Assembly (NCBI GenBank): GCA_048213135.1
Contig: PS015462.1
Span: 1-47,931 of the forward strand
Origin: Reclinomonas americana ATCC 50394
Lineage: Eukaryota
Reading direction: 5' to 3'
DNA length: 47,931 nt
Part shown: positions 55 through 33,200 of the stretch, in pieces
How positions within the stretch are numbered: position 1 is the stretch's first letter
Layout: every line of letters begins with the position of its first letter
Made by a program: the position numbers and the translations under genes
Notes under the pieces: model-generated
The model's input: only the letters and a program-made list of their open reading frames with translations
Database searches by the model: none
Told to the model about the DNA's origin: nothing

Positions 55-3000
55 TTACGTGGGTAGCGCTGTCGACAAGTCGGCAGCGGGTGTGAGCAGT
101 GAGGTAAAGTAGTCCTTGATGGAGAGATTGAGCTTGTGGCGATCGACGATCTCGGCCAGCAGATCTTGTCGTGTTGGGTGTCTGCGAAGGAGCGAGTGAG
201 TGAGTCGAATGCCGAGGTGTGGTGCATGACCATCATCGTCATTGGACGCAACGGCCTCTTGTATCGCTCGTCGGTGTAACGCACGGCGCGATTCGCGTTG
301 ACCGAGGTCATGCGAATGAGCGGGCCGAGAAGCCGTGCCGGCACCAGCATGTGATTCATCAGGGGGCCGAAGAACGGCACTTGATCCTTCACGAACAGCT
401 GGATGCGGTACAGGGAGTTGCTGACGGGGTAGATGACGATGCGCACGTGATTGAAGTTCGACTTGATCGTCGACGGCCAGTAGTCCCACGAGTGTTCGCA
501 CCACACGATTTGCACAAAGTCGTTGCCAATGTGCCGTTTCTGCAAGCGCACCTCGTCGTCAGCCCACGCAGACCAACAGGAGAGAAAGAACCTTTCTTTC
601 TTTCTCTACCACCACGCACCTTGTGAATCTGCCGCCCGTCGTCTGTCGCCACGTTAGGCATGCGAGTGGCCACGTGGAACAGTGCCTCGGTGGTGGAATT
701 TGACCAGTAGGGTGCTGTGTCGCCCGTCTGACCGTCGGTGGAGAGGCCACCGAGAAAGCCGCGGTGTGCCTTCAGGTCCACATTCCAGCCGAGAGAGAAC
801 AGGAAGCGCTCATATTCAGCGCTACCGCTCTCGTTCAAAAACAGCTCCCTCTCATCCTCCTGTCCGAGACGGACGTACACGATACCAATCTTGTGCGATT
901 CGCGGCTGCGTTTCAGACCCCCTCCGTGAGTGCGACGGGTATTGCGGTGCGGTACATGCGCGGACACACACGAACACGCAAGACGCAACTCTGAACGCAT
1001 GTCGAGCGCACGCAGACTCCTCAAAAATTTGTGATTCAGCTCGAGCGGGCAAAAATGCTCTGGCCCACTCAGCGACAGGAACCCGAAATGCGTCAGCAGC
1101 AGTCGACTGAAGCGTGTGAACGGGTGCTCGGGCGACGGCAGCGGTGGTCGAGCGGGTGTCCTGTGCATCGTGTTAGGCAAAGAGCGGCACACAATGTGCT
1201 GGCGCACGGCGGCTACGCAACATTTGCAATTGTGTGCGTCGCGAATGACTCTGCTGTCGAGCCTCTTGCCGGTCCATCTCCGTCTCCATGTCTTTCCTTC
1301 GCACCTCCACATTCGCCGGTATTGTTGGCAGGACGACTTGCGCAAATGCAGCGGCTTCCGTGTAGGTCGCCAGCACGCTGCGCCACGCACACAGGTGAGC
1401 GACGACTCCACGACGGACGCAACCATTCACCAGGCGATTCGCAACGCAACTGCTCGTGTAGTCGCTTGAGCATGTCGACCTGATCAAAATTCAAATCTTC
1501 GCTAAACATCGGTGGTTGGTCGGGTGTCCACAGCTCGGGCGGCGCCGCCGCTGCTGACGCCGTCAGCGACGACGACGACGAAGAGGCAGAGGATGCACCG
1601 GCAGCCACAGCGCCGTCAGAGGCCGATCCAGATGGTGAGTCTGGCGTTCCCAGTGTCAAGCTGTTCACCAGCGCCGTCGCTCCCGAGCCACCAAGAGTGG
1701 CGAAGCGCACATTGCGGGGACTGCGCGGATTGCCGGTCTCCGATGATGCAGTGTCGGTGGAGTCTGTGCGATCGTGGCTGGAGCCCGCGCGCCGTGGTCT
1801 GCACCGACGTGGCAACAGTGTTCAGCAATGGGAACGAGCAAAGCAGCACAATTCGTACACAACTGGAAATGGCCTCCGGTGGGAGTGCTTCGTGGCGCAG
1901 ACAGCGTGTTCCCGAGCGCCACGGCGGCGAGTGCGGCCGCACTACCAGCCGTCGTCGCCTTGTCTCCGCCAGCCGTCACCGTGGCCATGCTGTGACCACG
2001 CGAGCGCACATCCGCCACCAACGCTGATCCGGCTGCTGAGGCAACGCACGTCTCAGTGCAATGGACTAAACAAGAGGAGACAGAGACACACACGCACAAT
2101 CCTGGTAGACAGACGAGCTGCGCGGATGTGCTCCTGGTGGTGACAATAGGGGAGATACTGGCGATGGAGAAGGGGATCCCGACATGGAGCCACCTTCTGG
2201 AATCGACACCGCGAGAGAAGTTGACTGGTTGCGATCCAGCATTTCACCGCCGGAAATCACGGTTGGTAATGACGGCTCCTCGTCCACCATGCGGCACTTC
2301 CAGGCATACCGGCCAGTCATGTCACGAGTGACAACAATGACACATGGCGCTGTGCAAAATTCCAGTCAGCACAGAGTGTGATACTGCAGCTGCTGGGGAG
2401 TGAACCCTGAAACGCAACTGCCGTCGTCGTCGACAGCGTCTTGTACAGAGATTAGCCGGCGGGCGTGCATTTCAAAAAACATCGGTGGCCGGGTTCCGTA
2501 CGGGAACTCGGTCCCGGGGCCGGCCACCACAAATGGACCAGCAGTGAGTGGCTCCACCGAGTTCTCCGAATACTCTACATAGGAACTCGACAGAGTCTCC
2601 GCGCCTGAGGAGTAGGGAACAGGATATGAGACCACGCTGGCGTCAACTCGCACAAGGGCAAAAAACAAACAGCAGCTCACCGCCGGCCAGTGGGAAATTG
2701 TTGAATTGATGGAGGATGTGGGCGAGAAGGCTCTCCGCGGCCTCACGCACCACCGGATGCAACATGACAGACTCGGCACCGACAGAGTCATCTACGGAGG
2801 AGCCGCCTCGGGTCGACGAGCTGAAGCGACTCGCACCACTGCCGCCGGCGGGGCTGCCACTCCCCGATGCCATTGGCGACGCTGACGGCGACAGTGGAAC
2901 CGCTGGAATCTTGACAGACTTGCGCATTGCGGCGCGCTTGTCGGCCGACACACCCTGCACACAGCATTAGCGCGACGAAGATTGGATACAAACAGAATGC

Positions 3001-6000
3001 GGGGCATGCAGCTCACCACGAGCGACGGGCCCATGACTCCCGCAAGTGCGGTGGCGGCAGTGTTGGGATCCATGCCGCACGCAATCACATGGAACAGAGC
3101 GTGTGAGATCAGCGGATTGGCCAGCACGTCGGGTGTCAGTGCCATGGTGACATCCAGCAGCGCATCGTACAGGCCAACGATAACAGGCACTGCGACAAAA
3201 ATGAGGACGCTGCTGTGGAGGAGAGAGGAGGCAATGGAGACGCACAGCGAGTTTCTGTGAAGCGCATGATTTCCTCCTCGATGCGCGATCCCAGCGTGAT
3301 TACGAGATATTGCGCCGCTCCCTGCACACGCGCGGGGAGGAAAAGGTAAGCAGCAGTATGGCGGCACGACTGAAGGCGACAGCATAGTGGGGCAGCCACA
3401 CGCACCGGGTCGACTTCGACAACGCGACTCATCACCTCAGAGAGCATGCGAAGACAGTCGTGAGCAGCTTTCGCCGTCTGTTGTCGCTGGTCGACGCTCT
3501 TTTTCAACAACAACTCCAAGCACGAGTGCATCTGGACGCGCATGTCACTGCGCACGACAGAACATGCATGAGCGCTCGAGTTTTAGCAGCGGCGACAGCA
3601 CACAAAAATACGCTTGAAATCCCCACCTGCTGGACAAGAGCAAGTCCTGCAACAGCACGAGGCTGAGACCCCACACAGACATAATGTCGCACAGCTCGGT
3701 CAGGTTTTGTGACGCGGCCCTTGTGAACAGAACGTATAGGCGGTGGTGCAGCTAGGAGGAAAACAAAGGTAAGTAACCAATACCAGCTTTGGGGAATGAA
3801 CAACTTGGACGATGGCAGTGTACCTGAGCAAACGTGACGCTGGTCGACTCGAGGCCAGAGGGTGAAAACTGCACAGGAGACGGCAACGGAGCGTCACCAC
3901 CAAGTGAAGAGTGCGAGTAGACGGCCAGTGCACGTTACGCAACTCTCACTTGCGGAGTATTGGCAAAGTGATGCGGCAAGAACACGATGCTGACCATGAT
4001 GGACAGACCGGCCTCCTTCAGCTCGCTGTTGGTCGACGATTGTTGGAACTACAGTGACAAGGAAGAACGCACTGTGAGCATCAGCACAAAGAGAGAGAGA
4101 GAGAGAGAGAAGCTACTGGAATCGATCGCAACAATGCTCTGAATGGCGTCCAGGAAGGCCGGCAACAAGAACCGGCTGCCGGGGTGGTCGAGAGCAAAGA
4201 AGCCACGCGAGTGCATGATGATGGCTTCGGGAATCTTGGACGATCTGTCGCTGAGGCCCTGCAAGAGACAAAACACACACACGCGTCACGAACAATCGAC
4301 TGTGCTCACAATGGCGCGCGATCATACACACCTCTTGCAGCAAACTGTACACCAGGGCCAGATGCTGCGGGAAAATCGGGCGACTCGTGCGGCTGCACAC
4401 AATGCGACACAACACACTGTACGCTGACGCTCGGCCATCCTCGAAGCCACTGTGGCACACGGAAGTGTCAATAATAGAGCGGCAACTACATCGTACCGGC
4501 AGCTGGACGCAACGAGTCGGCACGACTGCACGCTTCCAGCAACCATTGCCCGAAAATGTGCAGCAGCGAGTTGGCCTCTGGCGGGTGCACAATGGTCGGT
4601 TGTGATGAACCACTGCTACCGCTGCCGCTGCTGCTGCCGCCACCACTGCCGCCACCGCCGCTACCCGATCCACCTGCATCAGCAACCAATAAAGGGACGT
4701 CAGCGACGAAGGATAGAACGGAACGAAGAAGAGCAGGAAGCTGATACGCACCGAATTCGGTCTTGGCCTCACGGCGTCCGACCGACAGGAAGAGGTTGAT
4801 CACATCGGCGAGTCCGCGGAAAGCCAAGGCGAAAATACCAGCCTCGGTGATCTCATTCGGGTTTCCCATGATGTCTGCAGACGACGGTCAGAAACACGGC
4901 TGGCACACCGACGGCGCGCGTGTGAGAGAAGACGCACAGAGAATCTTGTCCCACAAAAAGGCGATCTTGGAGCGCTTGATGGTGGCATCCGGGTGCACTC
5001 GATCGTCCTTCCCATAGTACAAGTAATCAATGAGCTGACCAGTGAGTCGCATCAGGGAGCCCTGTTCACGGCGGTGAGGATCTGCTCACTGCACAATCGT
5101 GAGACGATGGCAGGCATCGTGCGCAACTCTCCACTGTTGGACCGCCTGATGATAGTTCTTCCACAACGACATAAAGTGGTGCAGTTCGCCCCACAGCTCC
5201 TCACTTGCATCCGACAGCAGATCGGCGCGAACAAACAAATCAAAAAGAACCTGGCACAACACTGTGAGTGTCATGCCCATCGTCGCGCGCGCTCAGTATT
5301 GTTGTTGTCGCACCTTCAGCAACACATCGGCCACATCCTGCAAATAGTCGGCCGTCCCGCGACTCTCCACCAACAAGTAATTCGCAATGTTCATCTGCAA
5401 CTTCAGTACGCGGTCCCTGCACATATTCATGAGAGACTCGTCCAACTGGTGCCTGCGCGACAGCTGACGCACCATGTGGGACGCTCCAACTCCACATCCT
5501 TGACAACCAACGACGAAAAGATCTCCACGGCAGCACGACACAAACTAATGTGCGCACTCTCCGAGCCGCCCCTTCGTGGCAAGAAGAACACTTGCGCCAC
5601 CAGATCCGACATGGCCTGCACATCGTCGTCAAGCACAGGCAGCGAAGAATGACGCAGGGCGACAGAGGAATGCATACCATAATGTACAACTGCAGATTGG
5701 AGGCCATGGTTGGTGGTCGCTGAATCGTCGACCGCGACGTTGGTTTCATCCAGCCTCGCAGAATCTCAAACACACTCTCCAGCGTCTCCGTGTTGGTCAC
5801 CGGCAGAGTCATGCTCTGCGAAACAAAGAGGTGAGCGTCAACATGGAATCGTCACTACGTCCGTTCCAACAACCGCAACCACACCTGACGCAAAATCTCC
5901 AGTACCAAGTCGATTCGTGCACTGACACTGCAAATGGCGGCCATCTTCTGATCGTTGCGCAGTGATTCGGAAAGCCAGCGCACCAAAACCGCCAGCAGCG

Positions 6001-6031
6001 CACCGGGGCACTGTTCGAAGCCCCAGTCGCC

Positions 6032-6067
<36 letters not shown>

Positions 6068-8070: not shown

Positions 8071-8107
<37 letters not shown>

Positions 8108-10571
8108 NNNNNNNNNNNNNNNNNNNNNNNNNNNNNNNNNNNNNNNNTGAGCACTTGATTCCGCGCACTCGCTTACTCACGTGGTCCTCACCTGTGGTGG
8201 TACCACCAGCGCCGCATCCGGGTCCGGCAGTGGTGGTTTTGCCGTCGACGGAGCACCAGTTCAGGTGCGCAACGCTGGCGGTGCCATGGGTGGCTTCCTG
8301 GCGGGACCAAACAGTCCGTCACGCGCCGTGTCGAGCTCCTCTCCAGCAGCAGCCTCAGCAGCAGCAGCTCCGTCGCCTGTTGCCGCACCCACACCCATGC
8401 TCACACCCATGCAGCCAGTGATGCAGCTGGCACCATCGGCGGCGGCAGTCTCCGTGGCCGCTGTCGCGGTTCCAGTGGCCGCAGCCATGCGTGCGTCTAT
8501 TATTCCGCATGGCCAATGACATTGGTGACTATGTGAGCTGACTATGTGATTGGGCTCGCAGCTCCGCTGCCGGAGGGTTGGACTGAGCGGTTGGATGTGG
8601 CCAGTGGGCGTGTATATTATCAAAATGACGTGACTCGTGTCACACAGTGGGATCGTCCAGTACCTCCACCGTGCGTGCCTGTCCCTCCGTCGATACGTTT
8701 GTGTGTATGCGTACTCACATATGTCGACTGTTAATCAGGGGGTTGGTCGGCGTGACGCTGGTTACGGAAGACATGGCACGTATGCAGATCGGACCGGGTG
8801 CTGCTGCACCACCGGGTCAAGTTGCTGACGCTGAATGGAGCAAGATGCGCAATGCCGAGACCGCCATTGGCCTGCTTCGTTGCGTATACGAGTGCCAGGA
8901 GAAGAATGGTTGATGGTTGCACTCAATCCGTGGTATGTGCAGGTTCTGGAATTCCCGGCGTCCCTTCGCTGCCGCCAGCCGCACCTGTCGTGTTGGACTT
9001 CTCCAACGGCTCCACAGTGGCACAAGCCGCCAACTCGGCCGCCGCCGCAGCTGCTGCTCCCATTCCCGCCGCCGTTCCGACTCCGTATGCGCCTCCAGTC
9101 CCTCCCGTCCCCTCCGCTGTCCCCGTCGCCGTTCCAATGGCGCCCGCTCCGGCTACACCGGTTGCTCCTGCTGCACCAACGTCAGGACCTCGACCTGTCG
9201 CACCAGTGGCTGTTGTTGATGAGACGGTGAGCTGCGGGCAGCTGCAGTCTCGCACGCACATGTCGATTTCTTGTGCTCATGTGTGCGTGTGTGTGTGTGT
9301 GTGCAGGGCATTTCCGTGCCGCCTGTGGAAGCGCTCCCGTTGCCAGACGGCTGGGTGATGCGTTTCGATGCCACGCACAATCGTAACTACTTTGTGGATC
9401 ATGTTAACAAGACCACCTCGTGGTCGGATCCGCGCATTGAGATTCGGCGCAGGATGGTTGATGATGCACGAAGTTGAGCAGTGTGTGCACTCTCTGATAT
9501 GTCCGTTAGACTATGTCACTTACACATTCCTGCGTTGCATCTACCAGTGGCGTTGGAGGTGGCTCGCCGTGCTGATGCCGAAGATGCGCGTCGGAGAGAG
9601 GAAGACATGCGGCGTGCCGAGGAGGAGGCTCGTCGTATTGCAGCCGAGGAGGAGCGGTTGCGACAGGAGGAGTTGCGCCGCCGGGCTGCAGAGGAAGAGG
9701 CACGTCGTCGTGCGGCCGAAGAGGCTGCGCGCCGTCGGGCAGTAGAAGAAGAGGCTCGCCGGCGGGCGGCGGAAGAGGAGGCGCGTCGTCGCGCGGCAGA
9801 AGAGGCTCGTCAGGCGCAGTGGCGCAGGGAGGAGGAACAGCGACGGCAGCGTGAAATCGAGGAGGCCGAGCGCGTGGCACTGGAGGCACAGCAGATGGAG
9901 GAAGAGCAGCGCCGGTTGCGTCACTTTGTTGTCTGTATTGCGACTCGCACGCGTCGGCCTGTTTCTCACCATGTTTACTTGCTTGTTCGTGCGCAGCCTG
10001 CAGGAGGAGGAGGACATGCGGTACGCACAAGAGCTGGCGGAGGCTAACGCCAACGCCGCCAATTCTCTGCCGCCGGGCTGGGAGGAGTGCATTGACGCCC
10101 AAGGCCGGTGAGCAGACCGTGATCGACCCGCCGCAGTCTTTTTTGTGGCATTCACACTGTTGATACGTTTGCAGAACGTACTTTGTGGATCACAACACGC
10201 GCACCACTACGTGGAACGACCCTCGTCGCGCGCCTCCAGCGCAGCCGCCGATGCACCAACAGCACCCGCAAGTGGCGCAACCCAACCCCTACGCTGGCTA
10301 CGGACAGCCGGCGGCGCAACCGGTACGTCGCACGTGTGCACCCTTGCTGACTCAACCACCTCCTCCTTCTTGCTCACAATCTGTGCAGTACGGAGCGTAT
10401 GGCTACGGAAACCAGTACCCGCAGTACATGCAGCCGCAACAAGCGTACCCTGGCGCGCAGGTTCGACCGACTCCTTTCTCCTCCTGTCTCTTGTTGTCGC
10501 AAACTGAGGGAAGTCGCACTGCCACACAGCAACCTCCGTATGGATACGGCAACTACTCGCAGCAACGTTAA
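7768..10571 (+). CDS. C2 domain + 3 WW domains + ER/K single-alpha-helix protein, no HECT domain
   Basis: MVKAKFIVRLHSFSATNLLAKDRGGTSDPYLK...KTQVIPRSLNPTW (C2). Three WW motifs: PLPEGWTERLDVASGRVYYQNDVTRVTQWDRP, PLPDGW...YFVDHVNKTTSWSDPR and [39 protein letters not shown] repeats at 9600-9900. The C2 domain is cut by gap 8108-8147, so the join across the gap is assumed. Confidence 0.75.
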
Positions 10572-14520: not shown

Positions 14521-14773
14521 TATCGTTGACTCTCCGATAAACGTAAGAGAGTGCAACTATAGGTAAAGAAAAGGAGAAGAAAGAGGACGAAAGAGGAGAC
14601 TTTGTTGTTGAGTCGGTCGGTGTCCAGGGTTCCTGTGCGTACAGGCACACGGGCGAATATCGGGATAAGCAGGCACTCGGGCCACACGCGCTGCTTGAGA
14701 CATCGTATCGGAAAAATAAGGGCGGACAATGAGACAGATTGGTTGGAGCGTGATGAGTCATCGGCGGTTGGAG

Positions 14774-16371: not shown

Positions 16372-17641
16372 ATGTCACAACGAGGCTCATTACTGCCTCC
16401 GCCACTGGGAGGCACCACTGTCCCACCTTCTGCAGTGGCCACTCTCACCGACCAGAAGGCAGCCACAATGCAACAGAGTAGGCACTCGCTGAAGAGCGCA
16501 ATCACACAGGCGAGTGTAAGAAGGGCGCCGCCACTGTCACTGGCGACGAAACTCCTCAACTTTTTTGGATACATGTTACGCGCGAAAGAGAAAGAGAAAG
16601 AGAGTGTGTGTGTGAGAGAGAGAGACTCATTGAGGTGTGTCTGCAGATCGTTTTTGATTCTGCTGGGCATGGTGTACATTCTCATCAAGGTGTGTGTCTG
16701 TCACGCACATACTCACACACACACACACTTGCCTGCGCATGCTCTCTGACACGCATTTTCCATTGCAGCTGTTGGCCCGATGGTTCCCTCCGGTACGCGA
16801 GCTTTGCACTCTGCCGCACACACACGCACATACACACATACATACAACACACACTCGCACACACTCACTCACTCACTCATCCACACAGATTTGCATGGCT
16901 TCTGTGCGACTGCTCAGTGGCGGTCTCATATTGCTGTTCTTCTTGCTCGGCTACTCGTTGTTTGTGCCCTCATTTCGACCCAAGTTCAGTCTTGCCCCCC
17001 GCCAACCGCTGTTTGTGTGTGTGTTGCTCTTCTGACGCTGTCTTGGCGTGTGCGCGGAACGCAGGCTACGCTTGGCGCTGTTCACGGTCAGCGGCTTATG
17101 GAGAGTCATGTTCTTGGCGGTCACCAATTCCCTCATTCCGAGTATCATTATCATGGAGGCGGAGGTTTGGGTGTCTGTCATCTGTGGTTGGCTGGCTGCT
17201 GCGTGTCTGACCACTCCTTCGTTGTTGTTGCTGCAGTCGGCGGGAATCAATGCAGGCAGCGCGGCCATTTTCATGTCCACGGCACCGCGTTGCGTGCACT
17301 CCTGTTCTCGTTCCTCTGCTGCGCGCGCTCTCTCTCTCTCTCTCAACCAGCAGGCTGGCACAGTGTTCGCCATGGTTCTGGCCCACTTTTTCGTCGGACC
17401 CACGGAGCGGTTGGTGTTCAGACGCGCGCCTCCTCCCCGTGTCCTGTAGTTCTCACGCTCCGTGTGACAGTTACTCGTTGAAGAAGTTGCTGGCGTCGCT
17501 GGCGGCCTTCACGGGCGTGGTGCTTGTGATCCTCGATGACTTGGCCAACACGTCGGACGGCACGGGTGCCCCTGTTTATTACTACCCGCTGCTGCTCGTG
17601 TCGTCGTTCATGTATGGCATTGCACCGGGTGAGCCGTGGTC
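16372..17641 (+). CDS. EamA/DMT-family membrane transporter, 3' end lost in gap
   Basis: Spliced: GMVYILIK|LLARWFPP|ICMASVRLLSGGLILL...INAGSAAIFMSTAPLFAMVLAHFFVGPTERYSLKKLLASLAAFTGVVLVIL, a typical EamA repeat. 8 donors visible. Confidence 0.8.
17289..17363 (+). other. Intron with +1-shifted donor C|GTTGCGT (EamA gene)
   Basis: GT-AG excision restores the EamA motif STAP-L-F (c|tg). Confidence 0.8.
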
Positions 17642-18356
17642 NNNNNNNNNNNNNNNNNNNNNNNNNNNNNNNNNNNNNNNNNNNNNNNNNNNNNNNNNNN
17701 NNNNNNNNNNNNNNNNNNNNNNNNNNNNNNNNNNNNNNNNNNNNNNNNNNNNNNNNNNNNNNNNNNNNNNNNNNNNNNNNNNNNNNNNNNNNNNNNNNNN
17801 NNNNNNNNNNNNNNNNNNNNNNNNNNNNNNNNNNNNNNNNNNNNNNNNNNNNNNNNNNNNNNNNNNNNNNNNNNNNNNNNNNNNNNNNNNNNNNNNNNNN
17901 NNNNNNNNNNNNNNNNNNNNNNNNNNNNNNNNNNNNNNNNNNNNNNNNNNNNNNNNNNNNNNNNNNNNNNNNNNNNNNNNNNNNNNNNNNNNNNNNNNNN
18001 NNNNNNNNNNNNNNNNNNNNNNNNNNNNNNNNNNNNNNNNNNNNNNNNNNNNNNNNNNNNNNNNNNNNNNNNNNNNNNNNNNNNNNNNNNNNNNNNNNNN
18101 NNNNNNNNNNNNNNNNNNNNNNNNNNNNNNNNNNNNNNNNNNNNNNNNNNNNNNNNNNNNNNNNNNNNNNNNNNNNNNNNNNNNNNNNNNNNNNNNNNNN
18201 NNNNNNNNNNNNNNNNNNNNNNNNNNNNNNNNNNNNNNNNNNNNNNNNNNNNNNNNNNNNNNNNNTCCGCCACTCGCGCTGCAAGCACCATCGACAGTGT
18301 CAACTCACCACCACCACCATCAACAACAGCTATTTCGCCGGCAACAGCCACGCAAC

Positions 18357-20201
18357 TCGGTACTTTTCGTACATCTTCACCGCCTTTTCTCGATCCTCGG
18401 CCGACACCAGCACGGCGCCATTGCTCAGCAGCGCCAGCTTCTCCGACAGGCGAACATTCTGTGGCGCACCATCCTCAACAAAAAAACCAACCCCACGCGC
18501 TCTATGCAACACCACCCATCCACCCCCTCACCTCCTGCTCCATTTGCGTCAACTGCTTGTCCAGCTCGGCCTCGGTTGGCTCCGACTCCAGGCGCTTCAC
18601 GTCGTTGGCGAGTGCATTGCGCTCGGCGGTGACGGCTTCATCCTGCGCCTTGGCGTCCTCGATCTTGGCGTCGAGTTCGGCGAGTTCGGCCTCGTTGAGA
18701 ACCGGGAACTGATCCTGGTCGGCAAAGTAGATGCGCTGCTTGCCGGACCCGTCCTTGGCTCCGATCTTGTTGGCGGTGGCCATCGCCTCCAGCACCTTGG
18801 TCAGCAGCGGCTTCTTCACCGCGCCTTTTTGGGCGTCGAGAATGTGCTGCACGCTGAATGGCCGATTCAACTCGCGCAAGTAGTCCAGCAGCAGCTTCTC
18901 CACTGCGCCCGCACGTCAGCTCAATGAACGAGACAGATGCCACAGACTCATTAACGCACCCTCCTTCTCGTTGGTGATCGCCTTGACCTTCTCCTCCTTC
19001 TTGCCACCCGAGGCCTTCTTGCCACTAGCCGGTGCCTTCTTGCCGCCCGTCGCAGACGTCGCAGTGGAGGCGGCTGTGCGAAGCTTGTCACACAACAGAA
19101 GAGATATATAGAGAGAGAGAGATGCTACTCACCAGCTGCCTTGCCTCCAGTCGCCTTCTTGGCCGCCGGCTCTGCGTTGACAAAAAAAAAAGAGTGAACT
19201 CATTGTCTGTGGTGGCTGATGAAGAAGAAGAAGCACGCAACTCTTTTCCTCGTCGCCACCAGCATCGGCGGCCTTGCCTGCAACACGAAATGGAGTGAGT
19301 GGAGGCACCAAGAGAGCGTGCATCACAAACCACCGCCACACCCTTCTTGGCCGCCGGAGCCTTCTTCGCTGCCGGGGCCTTCTTCGCGGCCTTGCCCTGC
19401 TTCGCCTTCTTCTTCTTCTTGCCTCCACCGTCGGAATCCGAATCGTTAAAGTCGTCGTCCTCATCCTCCTCGTCCTCCTCCTCCTCGGACTCGTTATCCG
19501 CGGCAAAATCATTGTCGCTGTCGCCGCCCTCATCGTCCGACTCCACCTTGCGCTTGGCAGGCGCAGCAGCAGCAGCACGACCACTGCTCGCCACCGCCTC
19601 CGCATCGTCAACCGCCATGGCCGCCGCCGTATCCTCCTCCACAGAGCGCTCCGTGGTCGCTGATTGCGGAGTGCCTGTGCACCCCAGTCGGTCAGCACAT
19701 GCACACACGCATTCTCTTTCTCTCTCTCTCTCTCGTGCACGCACCAGTCACTGAGGGTGGTGTGCTTCCACTGGCCTCGTCGCTCTTCACAGCCTTCTTG
19801 CCGCGCTTGCCAGGCGATGCTGCGCCCTTCTTGGCACTCGGCGCCTTCTTGGCCGACTTGCCCGCCTTCTTCTTCGGTGTCACCTCGGTGGCTTTCAGTG
19901 AGGCGAGCGCCTCGGCGTCGCGCTCACGCACTCCAGGGCTCTCGCGATCAGAGTTGGGTTCTGTGTGTGAGAGAGAGAGCGTGTGTGTAAGTGGAAGCTT
20001 GGCGACATGTCGCGTGCACAGCGAGAGAGAGAGAGAGAGAGATGTGTATGTGCGTGTGTGTGTCTCTCTCTCTCTCTCTTTGTGTGTGAGTGTGTGCGCA
20101 CCAAAGTCGCTTCCATCAGACTCGTCTTCGTCTGAGCTGAACAGCTCTTTCATGTCAAAGTCACTGTCGTCATCGTCGTCGTTGTCCTTCTTGCGGCCCA
20201 T
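18357..20201 (-). CDS. HOP2: Hop2/TBPIP meiotic recombination protein with long acidic/Lys-rich N-terminal extension, 3' end lost in gap
   Basis: EKLLLDYLRELNRPFSVQHILDAQKGAVKKPLLTKVLEAMATANKIGAKDGSGKQRIYFADQDQFPVLNEAELAELDAKI followed by coiled coil and ...LVSAEDREKAVKMYEKYR. Joined in frame through GT-AG introns to the ATG at 20201. Confidence 0.85.
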
Positions 20202-21028: not shown

Positions 21029-24000
21029 ATGACTGCCACCAAGGCGATCGTGTTCTGGACAATGCTGGCCTTTGTGCTCGTGGCCATGGCTCCCCTGGCG
21101 TCAGCTGCGCCTCTCAGTTGCGTCACATGCACCACACTCCTTCTCTTTGTGTGTGTGTGTGTGTGCGCGCGCGCGGGCGAAAGGCGGCGCGCGACCGTTA
21201 AACATGTGACCGTTTTGACATTTTTTCGCGCCCAATTTTTGTTCTCTTATTCATCGAGCTGCGCGCAGCCCTCTCGCCCGGCAACATCGCCATCAAGGCC
21301 GGCACCGCTGGTCAGATCGTCGACATCAGTGTGACTGGCTCGGCCATTGCCTGGTCAGCTGCCTCCACTGCCACTCTCTTCCTCGATCGCGCGTGCACTG
21401 GCGCCTCTCCGACCACTGTCGTCAACTCCAACGCCGCCGCCTCGCTCACCTTTGATGCCTCGGGTGACGCCAATGGTGGTGAGCGATACCTGTGCATCGA
21501 CGTGGACGGAGCGGGCACCGCCGCCCGCAGCGAGTTTGTGGCCACTGTGTTTGTCTGTTGCGTTGCCCCTCCCTGCATCATTTCTCCGGATCCATCACTG
21601 ACTCGCTTCTACTTCTCCTCTCTCTCTCCCTGTCTCCTTCCTTCTCCTCTGTCTCCTTCTCTCTCCCTCCCTCTCTCCCCCCTTCCCACCACCACCGCAG
21701 ATGCCATTGGCACTCAGCTGAACAAGACGCCGCAACTCGTGAACGGTCTCGCCGACTTTCGCGTGACGGTGACTGGTCAGCACTTTGCCAATCGTCAACT
21801 GGGTACTGGCGGCTTGTTTGGCCTGTTCGCGGCCGCAGACTGCAGCGGATCTTCGGCACCAAACTCGAGCGTCACTCTGCAGGCCAGTGATCCGTCCGGC
21901 TTCTACACTCTGTTCTCGGTGGCCACTGGCGCATCGTTCGCGCAGGGTGCTCTGGGTGCAACGGCAACCGGGTCATGCACGCTGGTGTCGCCGGGCGTGT
22001 ACTATCTGTGTGGCAAGTTGCGTCGACGTTTGGGGGGAAAGGAGGCTGACATTCTGCGGTGTGCGTAACACTCCTTGCCGGCGCTTGGTGGCTTGCCTTG
22101 TCGTGTGCGTGCTTGTTGTGTCTGACCCTCCCTTCTCCACTGTCGGGTTCACCTTGCTTTGTCTCTCTGCATTCTTTCTTTCTCTTTCCTCTGTTCTTGA
22201 TTTCTTCTTCTTCTCCTCGTACACTTCCTGTCTCCTTCTTCTTCTTCTTCTCCCTCTCTCTACTTCTCTCTCTCCTCCCCCCCCCCCCCCCCACTCCTCT
22301 CCGCCGTCTCTCATAGCCTCCCTTCCCTTTCGCCAGGTTCCAGACCGGTGGCTCCTCTGTGTACCGCCTGCAATCACACCCACTCATCGTCACCGCCGCC
22401 TCGTCGTCGCCTGTGATCTCCTTTGCCAATCCGCCCGTGCTCAAGTACGGCAGCGCCAACTCGGTAGTGATTGGCTCCTCTGCCGAGAACCTCACCGACT
22501 GCACGAGCTTCAAGCTGGTGCCGGCGGGCGTCGATTGCGCCGCTCTGTCGGACTACTCGACACTGACAGGCAGTGTGGGTGCGGTGTTTGTGCGCGGCGG
22601 CGCCGATACCTGCCAGTTCGCGACTGGCTGCCGCGTGTTCCGTGCGACCATCACGCCGAACGGATCGAGCGGCGGCGGGGCGTACAAGCTGTGTGTGGCG
22701 GCCAACAACGGACCATACGCGTCGGCGGAAGAGTCGTTCACCTCCGGCTTCATGACGGTCGGTGGCCTCAGTGCAAGTGGCGCGACGCCCAATTCGACGC
22801 CATTGGTCGCTGATGATGCCACCACGAAGCCAAGCATGTCGACACTGGCGGTGACGGCGACCACCATCCAGTTCACGTTTGCTCGCGAGTTTTACCGCCG
22901 CCCGCGCGTGTTGCTCGGCTTTGCCAGTGTCGGCAGCCAGCAGGCGACTGCTCCGATTTCCACTCTTGCCAACGAGCCGGCCGACGGTACTTTCGCGTTT
23001 TGTGCGGAACCAGAGGTGACCGTGGCGAGGCTGTCGACTCGCTGTCATGGCGTGTCGACTGACGGGCAACCGGGACCCACCATCACGCTGAGTTGCGTTC
23101 ATGGAGGGAAAGGTGTGTGTGAGTGAAGTACGACTCATCAGCGTCCCTCTGCTGTGCTGCACATGCAGGCTACCTGGCGTACTATGTGCATCACACGAAT
23201 GCTCTGTCGATGGACGGTCAGCGCACGTTGACGAGCACTGCGTGGTTGACGGATGCGGCGAACAAGAACAGCTCGACTGTTGCGTTCTTGTAAAGTCATG
23301 TTGTCGTGTGAGATCGTGACCTGACTCGCTGTGCACAGTTGGTGAGTGTGTCTTCCGCGTACCAGTTTGCGTCGGTGCCAGCTATTCCAGTGGCCGTCAT
23401 TGGTGTGCTGTCGATTCGACAGTCGGCAAGGGGTAACGACGGTCGCGTTCGAGGCGATAACTTCTCGGTGACCAACAGCTCAGCGTCGCGTTCGAGTTTC
23501 GTGATCAAGGGCTTGGTGAGCGGCGACTCACGTATCGAGGCTGTGTCCGCGCGCTTTGCCGCGGCACCGACACGCCCCGACAGCACCAACAACAGCGGAT
23601 TCGTCATGCTGTCGGGAGGTGCGTTCTCATCCTCTCCCCTCTGCTCGAGTGTATTGCTTCTCTTTCTGATTTCTTTGTGAGTGGCGCAGAGACGACGCAC
23701 ACCAGTAGCACGACGACACAGACCGCCAGTCTGGTGACTTCGTCGACACCCAATGGCCTTCTGCGTGCCACCATCAGCGTGCAGCTGTTCCTGCGTGGGT
23801 GGAAGTCGTCGACAGTCACCGTGCAGAACCGGATCGACCAGCAGTCGCTGCAGTTCACCGCCAAGCGTCTCGGCAACGAGGACTATGTGACGGCGATTTC
23901 ATTCAACGCCAGCGGGGCTGACGCGTCCGACATTGAGTACGTGACGTGGGTGGCGATTGGTCGTGCGGCGCAGGGCGCGCCGATCTCGTGCCCTGTCGGC

Positions 24001-27000
24001 TACAGCGGCTCCAACTGCGGCGTGTGCGCGCTGCCCGACGGCACCACGACGTGCTCACTGAACCGTCGTGCTGTGCTGAGCTGCGCCTATGGTACCACCC
24101 AGATCATCGCGCAGTGTGCCGAGGGTCGCGAGTGCTTTGAGGCGTACGGCTCGGCGCAATGCGGATGCTCGGCAAACGGTGCTGTGTGCTCGACTGGTGG
24201 TGACTGCTGCTCTGGTAGCTGTGATTCTGGTCTGTGTGTAGCACTGTGCAACCCTTCCACGACGTGCTCTGGACACGGAACTTGCAACACCGACGGCTCC
24301 TGCCAATGCGATACTGATTATTACGGCTCATCGTGCAATGTGAACTGCGTGGCGGCCACGACATGCTCTGGTCAAGGAACGTGCAAGAGCGATGGAACGT
24401 GCCAGTGCGATACCGACTATTACGGTGCATCTTGCAATGTGAACTGCGTGGCGTCCACGACGTGTTCTGGCAATGGAACTTGTAAGAGTGACGGCACGTG
24501 CCAGTGCACGGGCGACTACACCAATGCCAGCTGCAACTGCAGTCCCAGTGTCACGTGCTCAGCTCACGGTACCTGTGGCATCGATGGAACCTGCACCTGC
24601 ACCGGCGACTACACCAATGCCAGTTGTAACTGCAGTCCCACTGCGACGTGCTCCAGTCACGGAACGTGCAACAGCGACGGCACGTGCCAGTGCACGGGCG
24701 ACTACACCAATGCCAGTTGTAACTGCAGTCCCACTGCCACGTGCTCTGGCAACGGAACATGCAAGAGTGACGGTACTTGCCAGTGCGACAGTGACTATTA
24801 CGGTGCTGCGTGCGATGTGAACTGTGTGGCATCCACCACGTGCTCTGCAAACGGAACGTGCAAGAGTGACGGCACATGCCAGTGTGATGCTGACTATTAC
24901 GGCTCTTCGTGCAATGTGAACTGTGTGGCGGCCACCACGTGCTCTGGTCACGGCACGTGCAAAAGTGACGGCACGTGTCAGTGCACTGACGACTACGCGA
25001 ATGCCAACTGCAACTGCAGTCCTAGCATCACCTGCTCCAGTCACGGAACTTGCAAGAGTGACGGCACGTGCCAATGCGACGCTGATTATTACGGTGCATC
25101 GTGCAACGCGAACTGTGTGGCGGCCACGACGTGCTCTGCAAACGGAACGTGCAAGAGTGACGGCACATGCCAGTGTGGTGCTGACTATTATGGCTCCTCG
25201 TGCAATGTGAACTGTGCAGCAGCCTCGACGTGCTCTGGCAACGGAACATGCAAGACTGACGGCACATGCCAGTGCACGGGCGACTACACCAACGCCAGCT
25301 GCAACTGCAGTCCCACCACGACGTGCTCTGGCAACGGAACGTGCAAGACTGACGGTACGTGCCAGTGCACGGGCGACTACACCAATGCCAGCTGCAACTG
25401 CAGTCCCAGTGTCACGTGCTCTGGCAACGGAACATGCAAGACTGACGGTACTTGCCAGTGTGACATTGGTTATATCGGTGCATCGTGCAATGAAACCTGC
25501 GTGGCAGCAACGACATGCTCTGGTCACGGATCGTGCAACGTCGATGGATCGTGCCTGTGCGATGCTGACTACTACGGTTCATCGTGCAACGTGAACTGTG
25601 TGGTGGCCACAACGTGCTCTGGTCACGGAACGTGCAAGAGTGACGGCTCGTGTCAGTGTGACGCTGACTACTACAGCGCATCGTGCAACGTGAACTGTGT
25701 GGTGGCCACAACGTGCTCTGATCACGGAACGTGCAAGAGTGACGGCACTTGCCAGTGTGACGCTGACTACTACGGCGCATCGTGCAACGTGAACTGCGTG
25801 GCGGCGACGACGTGCTCTGGACACGGAACATGCAAGAGTGACGGTACATGTCTGTGCACGGGCGACTACACCAATGCCAGCTGCAACTGCAGTCCCACTG
25901 CCACGTGCTCGGGCCACGGAACGTGCAAGACTGACGGCACGTGTCTTTGCACAGGCGACTACACCAACGCCAGCTGCAACTGCAGTCCCAGCGTCACATG
26001 CTCCGGCAACGCAACGTGCATGGCAGATGGTACGTGCCAGTGCACTGGCGACTACACCAATGCCAGCTGCAACTGCAGTCCCACCGCTACGTGCTCCGGC
26101 CATGGAACGTGCAACACCGATGGAACGTGCAGTTGTTCAAGTCCGTGGGGTGGTGAGTGATTCCTTTGTTTGTTTGCTGCATATTTGCTTCATCTAAACC
26201 TTGTTTTATCTCGACTACCAGGGTCAACATGCTCTACTGTTAACTGTTCCACCAGCATCAGTCTTGGGTCAATTGGCAACTGGGTGGCAGTGGCCTCCAG
26301 CAGTGACGGCACCAAATTGGTGGCCGTAATGTTCCTTCGTCAGATCTACACCTCCGCTGACTCTGGTGTGACATGGACTGCTCGTGAATCCAATCGCGTT
26401 TGGCAAGCAGTGGCATCCAACAGTGACGGCACCAAGTTGGTGGCTGCAGTGAGCTCTGGTAACATTTACACCTCCACTGACTCTGGTGTGACGTGGGCGT
26501 CTCGTGATTCCAGCCGCAACTGGCTGTCAGTGGCCTCCAGCAGTGACGGCACCAAGTTGGTGGCTGTAGTGGGCTCTGGTAACATTTACACCTCCACTGA
26601 CTCTGGTGTGACGTGGATGGCTCGCAGTGTAGTTCGCAACTACACGTCCGTGGCCTCCAGCAGTGACGGCACCAAGTTGGTGGCTGTAGTGGGATTTGGT
26701 AACATTTACACCTCCACTGACTCTGGGGCGACGTGGACGGCTCGCGATTCAAGTCGCCAGTGGCGGTCTGTGGCCTCCAGCAGTGACGGCACCAAGCTGG
26801 TGGCTGCAGTGAGCCCTGGTAATATTTATACCTCCACCGACTCGGGTGCGACGTGGACGGCACGTGATTCCAGTCGCAACTGGTATGCAGTGGCCTCAAA
26901 CAGTGACGGCATCAATTTGGTGGCTGTGGTGAACACTGGGCAGATTTACACCTCCACTGACTCCGGAGTGACGTGGACAGCTCGCTCTTCCCCGCGACCG

Positions 27001-27939
27001 TGGAGTGGTGTGACCTCCAGCAGCGACGGTACCAAGCTGGTGTCCGTTGTGAACGGAGGTCAGATCTTCACGTCGACCGACTCTGGTGTGACGTGGACTG
27101 GAGTAGCGTCCCAGGGACTGCAGTTTCCCAGTAATTGGCGGGCTGCGGCCTCCGACAGTAACGGTACCAAGTTGGTGGCCGCGGCCACCAGTCTTCCGAT
27201 ATACACTTCCGCCGATTCGGGCGTGACGTGGATAGATCATGAATCCAGTGGCCGCCGCCAGTGGGCGTCTGTGGCCGCCAGCAGTGATGGAACCAAGCTG
27301 GTTGCTCTTGAAAACGGTGGGCGGATTTACACCTCCACTGACTCTGGCGATACGTGGACGGCTCGCGATTCAACTCGCCAATGGCAATCGGCGGCCTCCA
27401 GCAACGACGGTGCCAAGCTTGTTGCTGTTGAAGTTGGTGGTCGGATTTACACCTCCACTGACTCCGGTGTGACGTGGACTGCCCGCGATTCGAATCGCAA
27501 CTGGATTGGGGTGGCCTCCAGCAGTGATGGCACGAAGCTGGTGGCTGTGGTGCTTGGCGGTCAGATTTACACCTCCACTAACTCGGGTGTGACATGGACG
27601 CCTCGTGAAACCAGTCGCAACTGGCAGGCAGTGGCCTCCAACAGTGATGGCACCAAGCTGGTGGCTGTGGTGCTTGGCGGTCAGATTTACACCTCCACTG
27701 ACTCTGGCGCGACGTGGACTGCCCGTGATTCCGCTCGTGACTGGCAGGCAGTGGCCTCTAGCAGCGACGGCGTCAAGTTGGTGGCTTTGTTGAACCCTGG
27801 GCAGATCTACATCTCCATCGACTCCGGCGCGACGTGGACTGCCTTTGATTCCAGTCGGAACTGGAAAGCTGTGGCCTCGAGCAGTGACGGCACCAAGTTT
27901 GTGGCACCTGCAGAAAAGGTGTATTTGTTTTCGTGTTAA
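21029..27939 (+). CDS. Large secreted mosaic protein: signal peptide, beta-rich 'Y.LC' modules, H-lectin-like region, about 20 EGF repeats, 14 BNR/Asp-box repeats
   Basis: MTATKAIVFWTMLAFVLVAMAPLASA signal peptide. 7 introns (donors 21117, 21557, 22017, 23092, 23279, ~23619, ~26153) keep the frame open to TAA 27937-27939. Confidence 0.8.
24247..26140 (+). repeat. Coding tandem array of about 20 EGF-like units of two types (99 bp/33 aa and 93 bp/31 aa)
   Basis: CVAATTCSGxGTCKSDGTCQCDADYYGASCNVN and CSPTATCSxxGTCKxDGTCQCTGDYTNASCN are interspersed, with high nucleotide identity. Confidence 0.95.
26281..27939 (+). repeat. Coding array of 14 ~120-bp (40-aa) BNR/Asp-box beta-propeller repeats, last one partial
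   Basis: WxxVASSSDGTKLVAVVxxGxIYTSTDSGVTWTAR units start at 26281, 26401, 26521, 26641, 26761, 26881, 27001 and continue to ~27862. Confidence 0.95.
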
Positions 27940-29231: not shown

Positions 29232-29798
29232 TCACTCACTGAGAATCTTGACATTCTCCACCGAGACCGCATGGTGGTGGACCAACCGGCCTCCGATCCA
29301 CCCCGAGATGGCCAGTCCGACACACGACGTGGTCGACAGCGCCACCGGCAGGAGCATGCTGTCGCGTGGAGTGGCGCCCGATCGCAGCCACAGATTGGCC
29401 GTGTACATTAGCAGCGCCACGGCATTGAGGATGAAGTGATAGAGGCCGAGGCGGAAGGTGGGCCCGCGCGTCAGCGTCAACCAATCGATGAGGCCCGGCA
29501 CCGCCGCCAAGTGCGCCATAATGTAGCCGCCCCACATGTTGTAGTACGACACGGTGAACCACGTGCTGCTGGTGCCTGCCTTGCCGCTACTCACCAGCCC
29601 AATGTAGTCGCACGCCAGCGAGAAGAGCCAGAGACCGACGGGGAAGGCGACCAGTGCCGGGTGCATCGGATTGCCAAAGAGCCGCAAACGCGACGGCTGG
29701 CCCACTCCCGCCACCGCCGCCACCGCCGACGGAGAGGCCACTTGCAACACTGGTTTCTGCATCTCAAACGGGAAGCGCTGCTGCTGCACGGTACTCAT
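29232..29798 (-). CDS. DUF2231-family membrane protein, intronless, prokaryote-type
   Basis: FGNPMHPALVAFPVGLW...D...GG...LAAVPGLIDW...GLYHFILN...GWIGGRLVHHH matches the DUF2231 pattern. The start codon is uncertain. Confidence 0.85.
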   Translation of the reverse strand: MSTVQQQRFPFEMQKPVLQVASPSAVAAVAGVGQPSRLRLFGNPMHPALVAFPVGLWLFSLACDYIGLVSSGKAGTSSTWFTVSYYNMWGGYIMAHLAAVPGLIDWLTLTRGPTFRLGLYHFILNAVALLMYTANLWLRSGATPRDSMLLPVALSTTSCVGLAISGWIGGRLVHHHAVSVENVKILSE

Positions 29799-30229: not shown

Positions 30230-33200
30230 ATGGACGGGGCATCGCCTTCTGCCTCGCCTGTGGACTCGCCGCAACTGCTGCCCACTGCTGATGCACCAGT
30301 GGAAGACGAAGAAGTGGCAGCAGGCGGAGAAGAGGATTTCGGTGATCATCACGATGCATCAGACGAGGAAGAACAACAAGACGAAGAAGATGATGATGAT
30401 GAAGATGATGATGATGAGGGCAGTGTGGCGTCCTCCGCAGCCTCTGCGTCTGTGCCGCGCCTGAGTCTCACACGCGCGACAAGTGCCTCTCGGCGAGTGT
30501 CGTCTCCCGGAGGCGACTCGCTGTCGTCCATGGGATCGTCGGTGGTCATGCTCGACTCACCCGGTGCGGCGAGTGTCGACAGTCCCTCCTCCAGCAAGCG
30601 GAGACGCTCAACTCCGGGGGGTGGAGCGTCGCCGACTTCGGGGCAGAACATCAAGGTCTCTCTTTGCTTTGCATAAGTGAGAGGATTTTTGCAGGTTCGG
30701 ATTTGCGTGACCATTGTTGTGCCTCTGCAGGTGATGTGCAGGTTCCGCCCGTCGAACTCGATTGAGCGCAAGGCTGGCGGCAAGGACTGCGTGGAGTTTG
30801 ATTTTGAGGGCAATGCGCATACTGTGCGGCTGACGGTGCGTGTGTTACTGAGCCTGGTCTGTCTTCTTCATGCATGACTCACTGTGTAGCTCTCTTCTCC
30901 CCTGGCCAGACCAAGGATAATGTCGCGCACAAGTTCTCGTTTGATTGCGTGTTCAGGCCCGGCGATCCGCAGGAGTCGGTCTACGAGTATGTCGGGTCGC
31001 CGGCCGTGGATGGTCTGTGATAACTCACTCCATCGTTTGAGGCGAAGCATGTCAGATTCTCATCATCATATGTGTGTGTTTTTTCGGCAGCGCTGTTCGA
31101 GGGCTACAATGCNNNNNNNNNNNNNNNNNNNNAGGAGATTGACAATGCCGATCTCAACATCATGTTCTACCTGTACGTGTCGTACGTGGAGATTTACAAT
31201 GAGCAGATTCGCGACTTGTTGAATCGTTGCGTGCACTCCCACCCTCTTGCTGTGCTCATCGTCTTTCATGCCAACATTATCGGTGCACCGCAGCGGCCAG
31301 CGGTACACTGTCGTTGCACGAGAGCAAGGACCATGCCATGCACGTCAAGGGTGCCCGTGTGGAGCAGGTGTTCCGAGTGGAGGAAATGTTTGACTATCTG
31401 CGCATTGGAGCCACGAACCGCGTGGTGGCGGCCACCAGTTACGCAGCGTTGCACGCGTGCACAGTGCACTGCACGACTTCATTTCTCAAACAATTCCTTT
31501 TCCCCCTCAGATATGAACGCCGAGAGCTCGCGGTCGCACTCCCTCTTCATCATCTCACTTACGACGGAGAACACGGCAACGTCGGAGAAGAAGAACTCCA
31601 AACTGCATCTCGTGGATTTGGCCGGTTCCGAAAAAGTCTCCAAAACCCGCGCGGAGGGTCAGCAGTTGGAGGAGGCCAAGCACATTAATCAGTCGCTGTC
31701 CACACTCGGTCTGGTCATTCAAGTGCTCACCAAACCCAGGAGACCTGGCGAGGTCTGTTGCAGACAGCAGCGCGTGTCATTTGTCTGACCAACTCACTCT
31801 TCCCCGCGCGCAGAAACTCGTACACGTGCCGTATCGCGACTCGAAACTCACACGACTACTCAAAGACTCCCTCGGCGGCAACTCGCGCACCACCCTCATC
31901 ATCAATTGCTCCGTCAACAGCTGGAACGATCAGGAGACGCTATCGACGCTGCGTTTCGGCGACCGAGCCAAGCAAATCAAGAACAAGCCGCGAGTCAACA
32001 AGGAGCTGTCGGTGCAGGAGCTGACCATGATGGTGCGACAGCTCGAAGAGGATGTGCGGCAACGTGACGAGATCATTTCCAAGTTCCGAGGTCTGTGGAC
32101 CGCAGCTCCGTGTCGTCTACTTCTTCTTCATCTCACGCTGCTGACTGTCTCCTTGGCAATGCACACACAACAGTGGCGGGCGAGGCCGGTCTGCAGGAGC
32201 GGTTGTTGGCGCTCGAGTCGTCGGAGCAGGGTGAGCTGGTGCAGTTGCGCGCCGACAATGAGCGGTTACGCGACGAGCTGCTGGCCGAGCAGGAGGAGAA
32301 CCAGACGCTGCGCGAGTCGCTGAGCAGCAAGGATGCCGAGCTGCAGGCGACAGAGGAGTTCAAGGCTGAGAAGTCGCGCATGGCGGGCGATCTCGAGTTG
32401 CTGCGCTTCCAGGTGGAGAAGATGCAGTTCCAAGAGAACAACTACGCCGTACAAGTGCAGGATCTGGAGGCCGCCAACACCTCGCTGCGGGAACAGGTTT
32501 CCTCGCTGGTGGCGCAACTAGAGGAGCAGCGGAAGGCACTGTCAAGTCCCAGTCGGCCACGTTCTGTGGAACTGGCTGAAGAGGTTTGCAGCGCACGCAC
32601 TCACCTCCGTCGTGTCCATGTTGCTCACCACCCGTATGCCTGTGTGCAGGAGCCATCACCTCTCTCGCCTACGGCCGCGAGCGGACCTTCAGCGGAAGAT
32701 ACGACAAAGGCGGCAGCGGTGCGACATTCGTTCCGCTCTCTGCTTCAGCAAGTCTTATTTGTCTCACACATTCCCACAGCCATCCTCAACCGACGATCCT
32801 CTGGCGGCACTGAAGGAGGCAGTGGCGTCGCGAGACCAAAAGATTCAGCGCCTGGTGCAAGCGCACTCACATCAAGTCTCCAAGCTGAAGACCGATCTGA
32901 CCGCGAAGATCCAGGCGCTCGGTTCGTGCGGCTGCCGACTCACTCGTTTCTTGCACGTTGCCTTCTAACCCGCCTGGGTTGCAGAGAAAGCCGAGGCGGC
33001 GGCACATCAAGAGTGCGAGGAGCTTGGACGACAGTTGGAGGTGTCGGCGGCTGCGGTGGCTGAGTTGACGGCGCTGCTGGAGAAGGGCTCCAGCGGTGTG
33101 CCTGCCGACGTGGTTCAGATGCAGAAGAGATTGCGTCGACTGGAGCAGCACAACGAATCGCTGACGCGTGAGAACGCCATGCGAGTGGAGATGGTACGGT

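Follow-up and report, generated by a model that had tools for sequence, protein, structure and literature searches.

The predicted introns in a 47,931-base window of Reclinomonas americana ATCC 50394 (NCBI GenBank assembly GCA_048213135.1, contig PS015462.1, positions 1 to 47,931; 'the window' throughout is this whole stretch of DNA) begin with two kinds of 5′ splice site, or donor, and the kind used is strongly coupled to the last base of the preceding exon. We designate these classes U-type (G at intron position +5) and S-type (T at +3, G at +6 and a base other than G at +5, mostly GTTGCGT). With a slash marking the end of the exon, the U-type donor reads G/GT followed by G, then C, A or T, then GT, and the S-type donor, N/GTT-GCGT, is the same core displaced one base inward by an extra T. 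Among the 93 introns that pass a strict filter, G precedes none of the 26 S-type donors and 44 of the 54 U-type donors (Fisher p 3.3e-13). A preliminary description of this DNA had proposed such a dependence and, as its test, a two-by-two comparison of −1G or non-G exon ends with +5G or +6G donors; applied to the window's predicted introns, this comparison gives the strong association just quoted, and the two donor classes and their coupling to the last exon base are confirmed as real and strong within the window.

Two donor classes and the last base of the exon

Introns were called with a Viterbi gene finder trained on the window, which combines three-periodic Markov coding scores, an antisense-coding shadow state, an acceptor matrix and an intron-length prior, the calls resting on coding frame, signals and homology. 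The donor model sees only intron positions +3 to +8, split according to whether +3 is T, and exon positions −1 to −3 are never used as a signal; because the model is blind to exon bases, a dependence on the last exon base cannot be created by the program. The finder settles on 137 introns (57 on + and 80 on −), of which 93 have flanking exons of at least 30 nucleotides on both sides, a length of 50–400 nucleotides and no N, and 80 of these 93 are needed for the coding frame. When the same trained model was run on the reversed window it called 24 introns, none of which passes the filter. Four GTTGCGT donors were already present among 25 introns called before any donor model was introduced. Too few introns (7, 12–25 and 69) came from runs that had no donor model or a fixed seed motif, and version 1 of the finder gave 119 introns with some donors misplaced (26157 for 26153); version 2, reported here, adds the length prior. 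Remaining errors include micro-exons and a missed part of a WW-domain gene, and since the finder is imperfect we give filtered and unfiltered counts side by side. The introns behave as ordinary GT-AG introns, having GT...AG borders and an excision that restores the frame or a continuous match to a homologue.

The association strengthens as the filters tighten, from 2 of 33 S-type donors after G against 50 of 80 U-type donors in the full set of 137 introns (Fisher p 1.4e-8) to the filtered values given above; among the 80 introns that are both filtered and required for the frame the figures are 0 of 22 and 37 of 46 (Fisher p 5e-11). Read from the exon side, S-type donors serve 26 of the 36 filtered non-G ends and none of the 44 G ends, the ratio of S-type to U-type being 14:2 after A, 6:3 after C, 6:5 after T and 0:44 after G. 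The absence of G is a depletion relative to coding sequence, since G precedes GTT in 19.4% of cases inside predicted exons (p=0.004 for 0 of 26, p=0.03 for 2 of 33), and of 62 GTGCGT sites that do not serve as donors, only 5 have G before them. GTTGCGT itself occurs 29 times on the two strands, compared with 12.0 ± 3.8 expected from dinucleotide shuffles (none of 100 shuffles reaches 29), and the base before these sites is A in 13, C in 7, T in 7 and G in 2. S-type donors thus begin about a quarter of all introns (26/93 filtered, 33/137 unfiltered). They fall in phases 1, 0 and 2 in 12, 8 and 6 cases, compared with 25, 21 and 8 for the U-type; this lack of difference indicates that S-type introns are not tied to codon position.

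The preliminary description had placed 35 of 36 shifted donors after A, C or T. We recover the trend with a different count, 31 of 33, the exceptions being 9915, as it had stated, and 1423. The first is clear: intron 9915..9996 (+), G/GTTGCGT, is needed for the frame. The second lies at 1378..1450 (−), where two in-frame GTTGCGT donors share one acceptor, 1450 following A and giving an intron of 73 nucleotides and 1423 following G and giving one of 46; the gene finder chose 1423, and the intron-length distribution (median 69–71 nucleotides) favours 1450. Tandem in-frame donors of this kind, with at least one GTTGCGT per pair, were observed at 3943–3949 (−) and 1423–1450 (−), 6 and 27 nucleotides apart, and may be alternative donors or simply ambiguous calls. 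For unshifted donors the earlier pattern also held while its numbers did not all do so, as about 75 had been reported after G and we find 61 (50 U-type and 11 of other classes). Unshifted donors after non-G had been put at 8–9, close to the 10 of 54 in our filtered set; the unfiltered set has 30 of 80, many of which are doubtful because they adjoin micro-exons.

The gene singled out as a clean example of the rule, at 21029–27939 (+), is composed of eight exons, and excising its seven introns yields a single open frame of 2005 codons from an ATG at 21029 to a stop codon at 27937. Five introns are S-type: 21117..21268 (A/GTTGCGT, 152 nucleotides, phase 1), 21557..21700 (T/GTTGCGT, 144 nucleotides), 22017..22336 (A/GTTGCGT, 320 nucleotides), 23092..23168 (A/GTTGCGT, 77 nucleotides) and 23279..23338 (T/GTTGCGT, 60 nucleotides). 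The remaining two are U-type and follow G, at 23619..23689 (G/GTGCGT, 71 nucleotides) and 26153..26221 (G/GTGAGT, 69 nucleotides), so that the donors and the bases before them are exactly as first described. All seven, on the + strand, were called by the gene finder and agree with the open frame. Four of the seven are needed for the frame, since their lengths are not multiples of three, and intron 21557..21700 is not proven by the frame alone because its length is a multiple of three and it lacks an in-frame stop codon. The first three introns are CT-rich and are length outliers in the window. The N-terminus of the protein resembles a signal peptide and two large exons match the Pfam families EGF_TEN, EGF_Teneurin, Sortilin-Vps10 and BNR; the product is predicted to be secreted and to carry EGF repeats of the teneurin type together with repeats of the BNR/sortilin type.

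Pfam scans of single exons and local tblastn searches with relatives gave coordinates against which ten junctions could be compared, and all ten agree with the predicted introns; each of the five S-type junctions follows a base other than G and each of the five U-type junctions (619, 30836, 31013, 31753 and 32091) follows G. Three of the S-type introns lie in a tuberin-like Rap-GAP gene (about 55–7450, −), for which a word-based protein search gave two matches and a full scan gave the tuberin-like proteins, up to 59% identical, that were used for the junction checks. At 182..252 (−; C/GTTGCGT) the homologue residues are continuous across the junction (1555/1556 in P0131 and 1357/1358 in P0123), as they are at 906..989 (−; A/GTTGCGT; 1263/1264 in P0128 and 1365/1366 in P0131), while at 4450..4513 (−; C/GTTGCGT) residue 615 of P0124 spans the junction and residues 613 and 615 of P0128 flank it. 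The U-type intron 540..619 (−; G/GTGCGT) divides the Rap-GAP domain, positions 2–77 of the Pfam Rap_GAP profile falling in one exon and 78–174 in the next. The other two S-type junctions are in the motor domain of a kinesin-1 gene (about 30300–34150, +), whose best protein match is a relative at 78% identity (P0004). Intron 31226..31293 (+; C/GTTGCGT) is placed to within one residue, P0004 residues 131–158 extending to 31221 and 163–208 starting from 31299. Intron 31438..31510 (+; A/GTTACGC) is residue-exact, with a split codon between positions 193 and 195 of the Pfam Kinesin profile and residues 208, 209 and 210 of P0004 in succession. The U-type kinesin junctions at 30836, 31013, 31753 and 32091 are confirmed by homology in the same way.

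A C2/WW-domain gene (about 7770–10570, +), which the finder broke into fragments, was modelled by hand. Its introns at 8491..8561 and 8671..8738 (both +) start C/GTGCGT, as the preliminary description had noted, and are U-type donors after a non-G base, whereas 8879..8942 (+; C/GTTGCGT), missed by the gene finder, is S-type; together with the intron starting at 9227 (G/GTGAGC) they keep one open frame. The donor past the second WW domain, near 9456–9473, is ambiguous. The gene encodes a C2 domain, then at least three WW domains (8562–8670, 9307–9455 and 10176–10322, +) and a long Glu/Arg-rich stretch.

Position by position, +4 to +7 of the S-type donors mirror +3 to +6 of the U-type. G occupies S-type +4 in 20 of 26 cases and U-type +3 in 45 of 54, T occupies S-type +7 in 19 of 26 and U-type +6 in 34 of 54, and overall S-type positions +4, +6 and +7 resemble U-type +3, +5 and +6, as a one-base displacement requires. 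The same extra T appears on a second core, which reads GTCTGT after G (31013, 31753 and 32091) and GTTCTGT after C (32561 and 3733). Between 30448 and 32173 (+) predicted donors of the kinesin-1 gene use the GTCTGT core, perhaps also at 30448 after C, and the core is rare elsewhere in the window. At one position the S-type motif is the stricter of the two: C is found at +5 in 24 of 26 donors (30 of 33 unfiltered) compared with 26 of 54 at U-type +4 (p=1.4e-4), and A in none of 26 (0 of 33 unfiltered) compared with 16 of 54 (20 of 80 unfiltered; p=9e-4). The single heptamer GTTGCGT accounts for 18 of the 33 S-type donors.

Beyond the donor the two classes are alike. Median lengths are 71 and 69 nucleotides for S-type and U-type introns respectively (p=0.36), G+C contents are 0.54 and 0.55, a CTNAC motif is found in 12 of 26 and 24 of 54, the acceptor GCAG is common to both, and both classes occur together in 9 of 15 listed gene models. 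This likeness argues that they are ordinary introns of one spliceosome and neither minor-class nor mobile. Minor, U12-type introns have a long fixed ATATCC or GTATCC donor with a matching branch box, and we rejected this identity for the S-type introns, whose donors are GTTGCGT-like and whose 3′ ends are the same as those of the U-type. Acceptors throughout carry an unusual extra G in GCAG/ (for example at 21261–21268 and 23682–23689): 51 of the 80 filtered introns of the two classes have G at −4, and 78 have C at −3. The pyrimidine tract of the acceptors is weak. Intron lengths are tightly distributed (median about 70 nucleotides, interquartile range 63–82).

Binding register and the reader of S-type donors

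The exon ends before S-type donors point to a change in register. Their last base (A in 14, C in 6, T in 6 and G in none of the filtered set) is enriched in A over the exon background of 0.25 (p=0.0014), and its log-likelihood is −32.8 under the profile of U-type position −2 compared with −71.1 under that of U-type −1. Exon ends that are rich in A and poor in G are as expected if the last base lies opposite the U1 nucleotide that −2 usually contacts, and with G at −1 in 0 of 26 S-type compared with 44 of 54 U-type donors, and A in 14 of 26, the last exon base here appears to have taken over the −2 role, which places no demand for G. We infer from these sequence patterns that U1 small nuclear RNA (snRNA), or a form of U1, would bind both donor kinds at the same place relative to the TGCGT core. 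At S-type donors the +1G of the intron would then occupy the slot of the exonic −1G and the last exon base the −2 slot, and the cut, fixed by subsequent steps, would stay before GT and lie one base upstream of the position implied by the register of the reader. We rate the probability of this shared register, with +1G in the −1G slot and the cut at GT, as about even.

Several observations weigh against this reading. Compared with plain exon background, the U-type −2 profile describes the S-type exon ends only marginally better in the filtered set (−32.8 against −35.1) and no better in the unfiltered set (−46.3 against −44.7); because it barely beats the background, the positive evidence for a shift over no exon contact at all is thin. 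Duplex energies were calculated with nearest-neighbour parameters, taking the standard U1 5′ end from PMC4856993 and allowing the canonical, +1-shifted and +3-bulged registers in turn, with pseudouridines and proteins lying outside the model. In the canonical register the mean for U-type donors is −6.2 kcal/mol; for the 26 S-type donors the mean is 0.0 kcal/mol in that register, −0.5 kcal/mol in the shifted one and −0.2 kcal/mol in the bulged one. Of these 26, 12 pair better in the shifted than in the canonical register, with a standard U1 end that may not be that of the organism itself; such near-zero values mean that base pairing with this end is not enough to account for a heptamer so strictly conserved. 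Nor does a shifted N/GTTGCGT form more pairs than an unshifted N/GTGCGT, and yet it is used at non-G ends in 26 cases against 10, so that plain compensation does not account for the preference. Position 5 of standard U1 pairs with A, which predicts A at S-type +5, where A is found in 0 of 33 donors. Finally, all of the evidence comes from one 48-kb window.

The preliminary description had suggested that the +1G stands in for the −1G, N/G-TTGCGT mimicking G/GTGCGT. The displacement of the motif by one base and the loss of −1G speak for this part of its proposal, and the energies calculated with standard U1 and the C at +5 speak against it. Its further idea of a compensatory code that frees exon ends fits the statistics, but the energetics it implied fail unless the reading RNA has G opposite the +5C. 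The strict C at this position, together with the lack of predicted pairing with standard U1, suggests that the reader carries such a G, and this reader may be an altered U1 5′ end or a second U1-type variant.

A related explanation keeps the shifted register but does without its mismatch at +2. A variant U1 or another small RNA complementary to (A)GUUGCGU would read S-type donors and ordinary U1 the U-type, which is unlikely in our judgement, though far from negligible. It would explain why the S-type motif is so much stricter than the U-type at the base after the displaced G, why one heptamer makes up over half of the class, why standard U1 pairs with no S-type donor, and why S-type donors are preferred at non-G ends, a preference that a mismatched shift leaves unexplained; A at −1 would moreover lengthen the pairing. 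A comparable idea has been raised, in a passage of Irimia & Roy (2008; PMC2483917), for the GTGCGTG donors of Ostreococcus. Against it, an Rfam scan of the window gave no snRNA gene, and −1G should be tolerated as a G-U wobble yet is depleted. To our knowledge the U1 5′ end is also almost invariant across eukaryotes. In its full form, with two parallel 5′ splice-site readers in the major spliceosome, ordinary U1 for G/GTNNGT and a second or rewritten U1 fully complementary to (A)GUUGCGU, we likewise give it a low though real probability.

History rather than function could also couple the exon end to the donor. S-type introns might be a cohort, for instance a mobile family with a 5′ GTTGCGT that inserted at non-G sites, so that the coupling would record insertion sites. 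Inserted-intron families are known in several protists and the heptamer is strict, as such an origin would have it; on the other hand, no sequence similarity links the S-type introns outside the donor. A comparison of 132 introns with the low-complexity filter on gave nine matches, none between two S-type introns, which is not the pattern of introner-like elements, and length, G+C content, acceptor and branch-like motif are the same as in the U-type. S-type introns also lie in the conserved cores of the kinesin-1 and Rap-GAP genes, and the extra T recurs on the second core in GTTCTGT. We consider this origin improbable.

The registers can be distinguished further by what each asks of −1G. In a bulged register, −1, +1 and +2 would pair normally, the extra U at +3 (or +2) would bulge out and pairing would resume on GCGU, leaving +1G and +2U positioned as usual for U6 and catalysis. 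Human genes have a few dozen recorded sites with a +2/+3 bulge (68 predicted; Tan et al., 2016, Table 3, PMC4856993). However, −1G should then stay favoured at least as much as in the U-type, and it is wholly absent from the filtered S-type donors; the energy predicted with standard U1, −0.2 kcal/mol, offers little; and since deletion of the T would always give a better site, S-type donors should be rare at every exon end. The bulged register does not fit the S-type donors and we regard it as very improbable. That the pattern is an artefact of intron picking, by eye or by program, is barely credible: the finder errs (micro-exons, missed genes, wrong donors at first such as 26157 for 26153), both motif families went into the seed of its donor model and the introns are predictions from sequence, but the program is blind to exon bases at the donor, the reversed control leaves no filtered intron, the association grows with stricter filters and it holds at all ten homology-checked junctions.

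Genes and other features of the window

The window has a G+C content of about 57% and includes eight runs of N totalling 3,203 N. Eukaryotic genes with short introns, roughly 8–9 per gene, crowd both of its strands. Besides the Rap-GAP, C2/WW, EGF/BNR and kinesin-1 genes described above, it contains a teneurin-EGF gene (about 10800–14900, −), a Hop2/TBPIP gene (about 18330–19100, −), an exon of which gave no match in the protein search, and a DUF2231 gene (−); RING, Myb and TPR genes lie beyond the kinesin-1 gene. At 29238–29798 (−) a single exon of 187 codons holds the whole DUF2231 domain (E 5e-28; annotated in Pfam as a predicted membrane protein) inside an intron-bearing eukaryotic gene model. 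DUF2231 is a bacterial family, and this domain may be an old transfer. In the kinesin-1 gene a 20-N gap at 31113–31132 spans about 55 residues of the motor domain (homologue residues 76–130), and because so many residues are missing the true gap must be longer than 20 bases.

Microsatellites of (GTGAGT)n, (GTGCGT)n and (GT)n at 7325–7347 (−), 14992–15010 (+), 16868–16876 (−) and 20007–20092 mimic donor motifs and thereby inflate raw motif counts. An Rfam scan of the window gave no match at the gathering score and, at E<=1, six weak matches resembling microRNAs or small nucleolar RNAs with no snRNA among them; four of the six sit on the (GT)n tract at 20007–20092 and are probably due to chance.

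Relation to known donor systems

A shifted U1 register with the cut at GU has been shown experimentally in human cells (Tan et al., 2016, PMC4856993, citing Roca & Krainer, 2009; reviewed in PMC9311317). These human sites resemble the S-type donors in that the consensus past GU is displaced by one base and the last base of the exon loses its usual role, and they resemble the mechanism favoured here in that U1 pairs one position off while the cut remains at GU. They differ in frequency and in core. All validated non-canonical registers together are estimated to make up about 1.5% of human donors and shifted ones are a tiny subset of these (PMC4856993), whereas S-type donors begin about a quarter of the introns in the window. 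In the human example of Tan et al. the U1 pseudouridines pair with an AAGU core, whereas the core here is GCGU, with an obligatory C and no A, and is left unpaired by standard U1. The human +2/+3 bulge sites (Roca et al., 2012, via PMC4856993) share with the S-type an extra U after GU followed by the normal consensus, but their register keeps the pairs on the exon side and −1G remains useful, unlike the complete loss of −1G observed here.

The main U-type donor, G/GTGCGT, with its unusual C at +4, shares its core with the GTGCGT(G) consensus of the green picoalgae Ostreococcus and Micromonas (PMC2483917, PMC3879977). The excerpts on these algae mention no second class of GTT type. Ostreococcus is intron-poor, unlike the intron-rich genes of the window, and the picoalgal branch motif ACTGAC is not dominant here, CTGAC being found in 14 of 80 introns. 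Another system with two donor classes in one genome is that of the LUC7 proteins, which govern left-handed and right-handed 5′ splice sites, one class weighted towards the exon and the other towards the intron (Kenny et al., 2025, PMC11842720). S-type donors could be placed beside these as an extreme intron-side class, and donors with a weak core in our set (the 'other' class) are nearly all at AG or GG exon ends. Handedness, however, is a shift of consensus strength within one register, whereas the S-type motif is itself displaced by one base. Donor models built by maximal dependence decomposition treat −1G and +5G as interdependent, and the trade-off in those models resembles ours in that the last exon base and intron positions compensate for one another; it is quantitative and confined to one register, whereas here a base has been inserted and the second motif is a distinct one. 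No GTTGCGT or GTT-type donor class is described in the passages considered from literature searched by motif and by topic.

Eighty metagenome kinesin loci were compared with the window, the closest of which (L003) is 73% identical. In 38 of the 40 loci longer than 5 kb the density of GTTGCGT is 0–2.6 per 10 kb, compared with 6 per 10 kb here, these being counts of motif contexts only. The two exceptions, L065 and L063, have an identical set of six GTTGCGT sites and look like overlapping copies; two of their six sites follow G and five are on the strand opposite to the kinesin match.

These comparisons suggest that S-type donors are a previously undescribed form of the shifted-register site, which is rare in human genes and is here frequent enough to make up a major class. 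A gene finder built around one donor matrix would miss or misplace roughly a quarter of the introns in this DNA, as early versions of ours did. If the pattern holds across the genome, it would provide thousands of natural cases in which binding site and cut lie one base apart, a situation represented in human cells by rare sites and minigenes only, and hence a way to test directly which step of the spliceosome determines the cut, a view of how exon ends escape the −1G constraint, and a test of whether the near-invariant 5′ end of U1 can change or duplicate. Should the less probable reading with two readers be true, about a quarter of introns would be specified by another guide sequence, with the cut one base off register, and this would be the first donor code of the major spliceosome to be split between two guide sequences.

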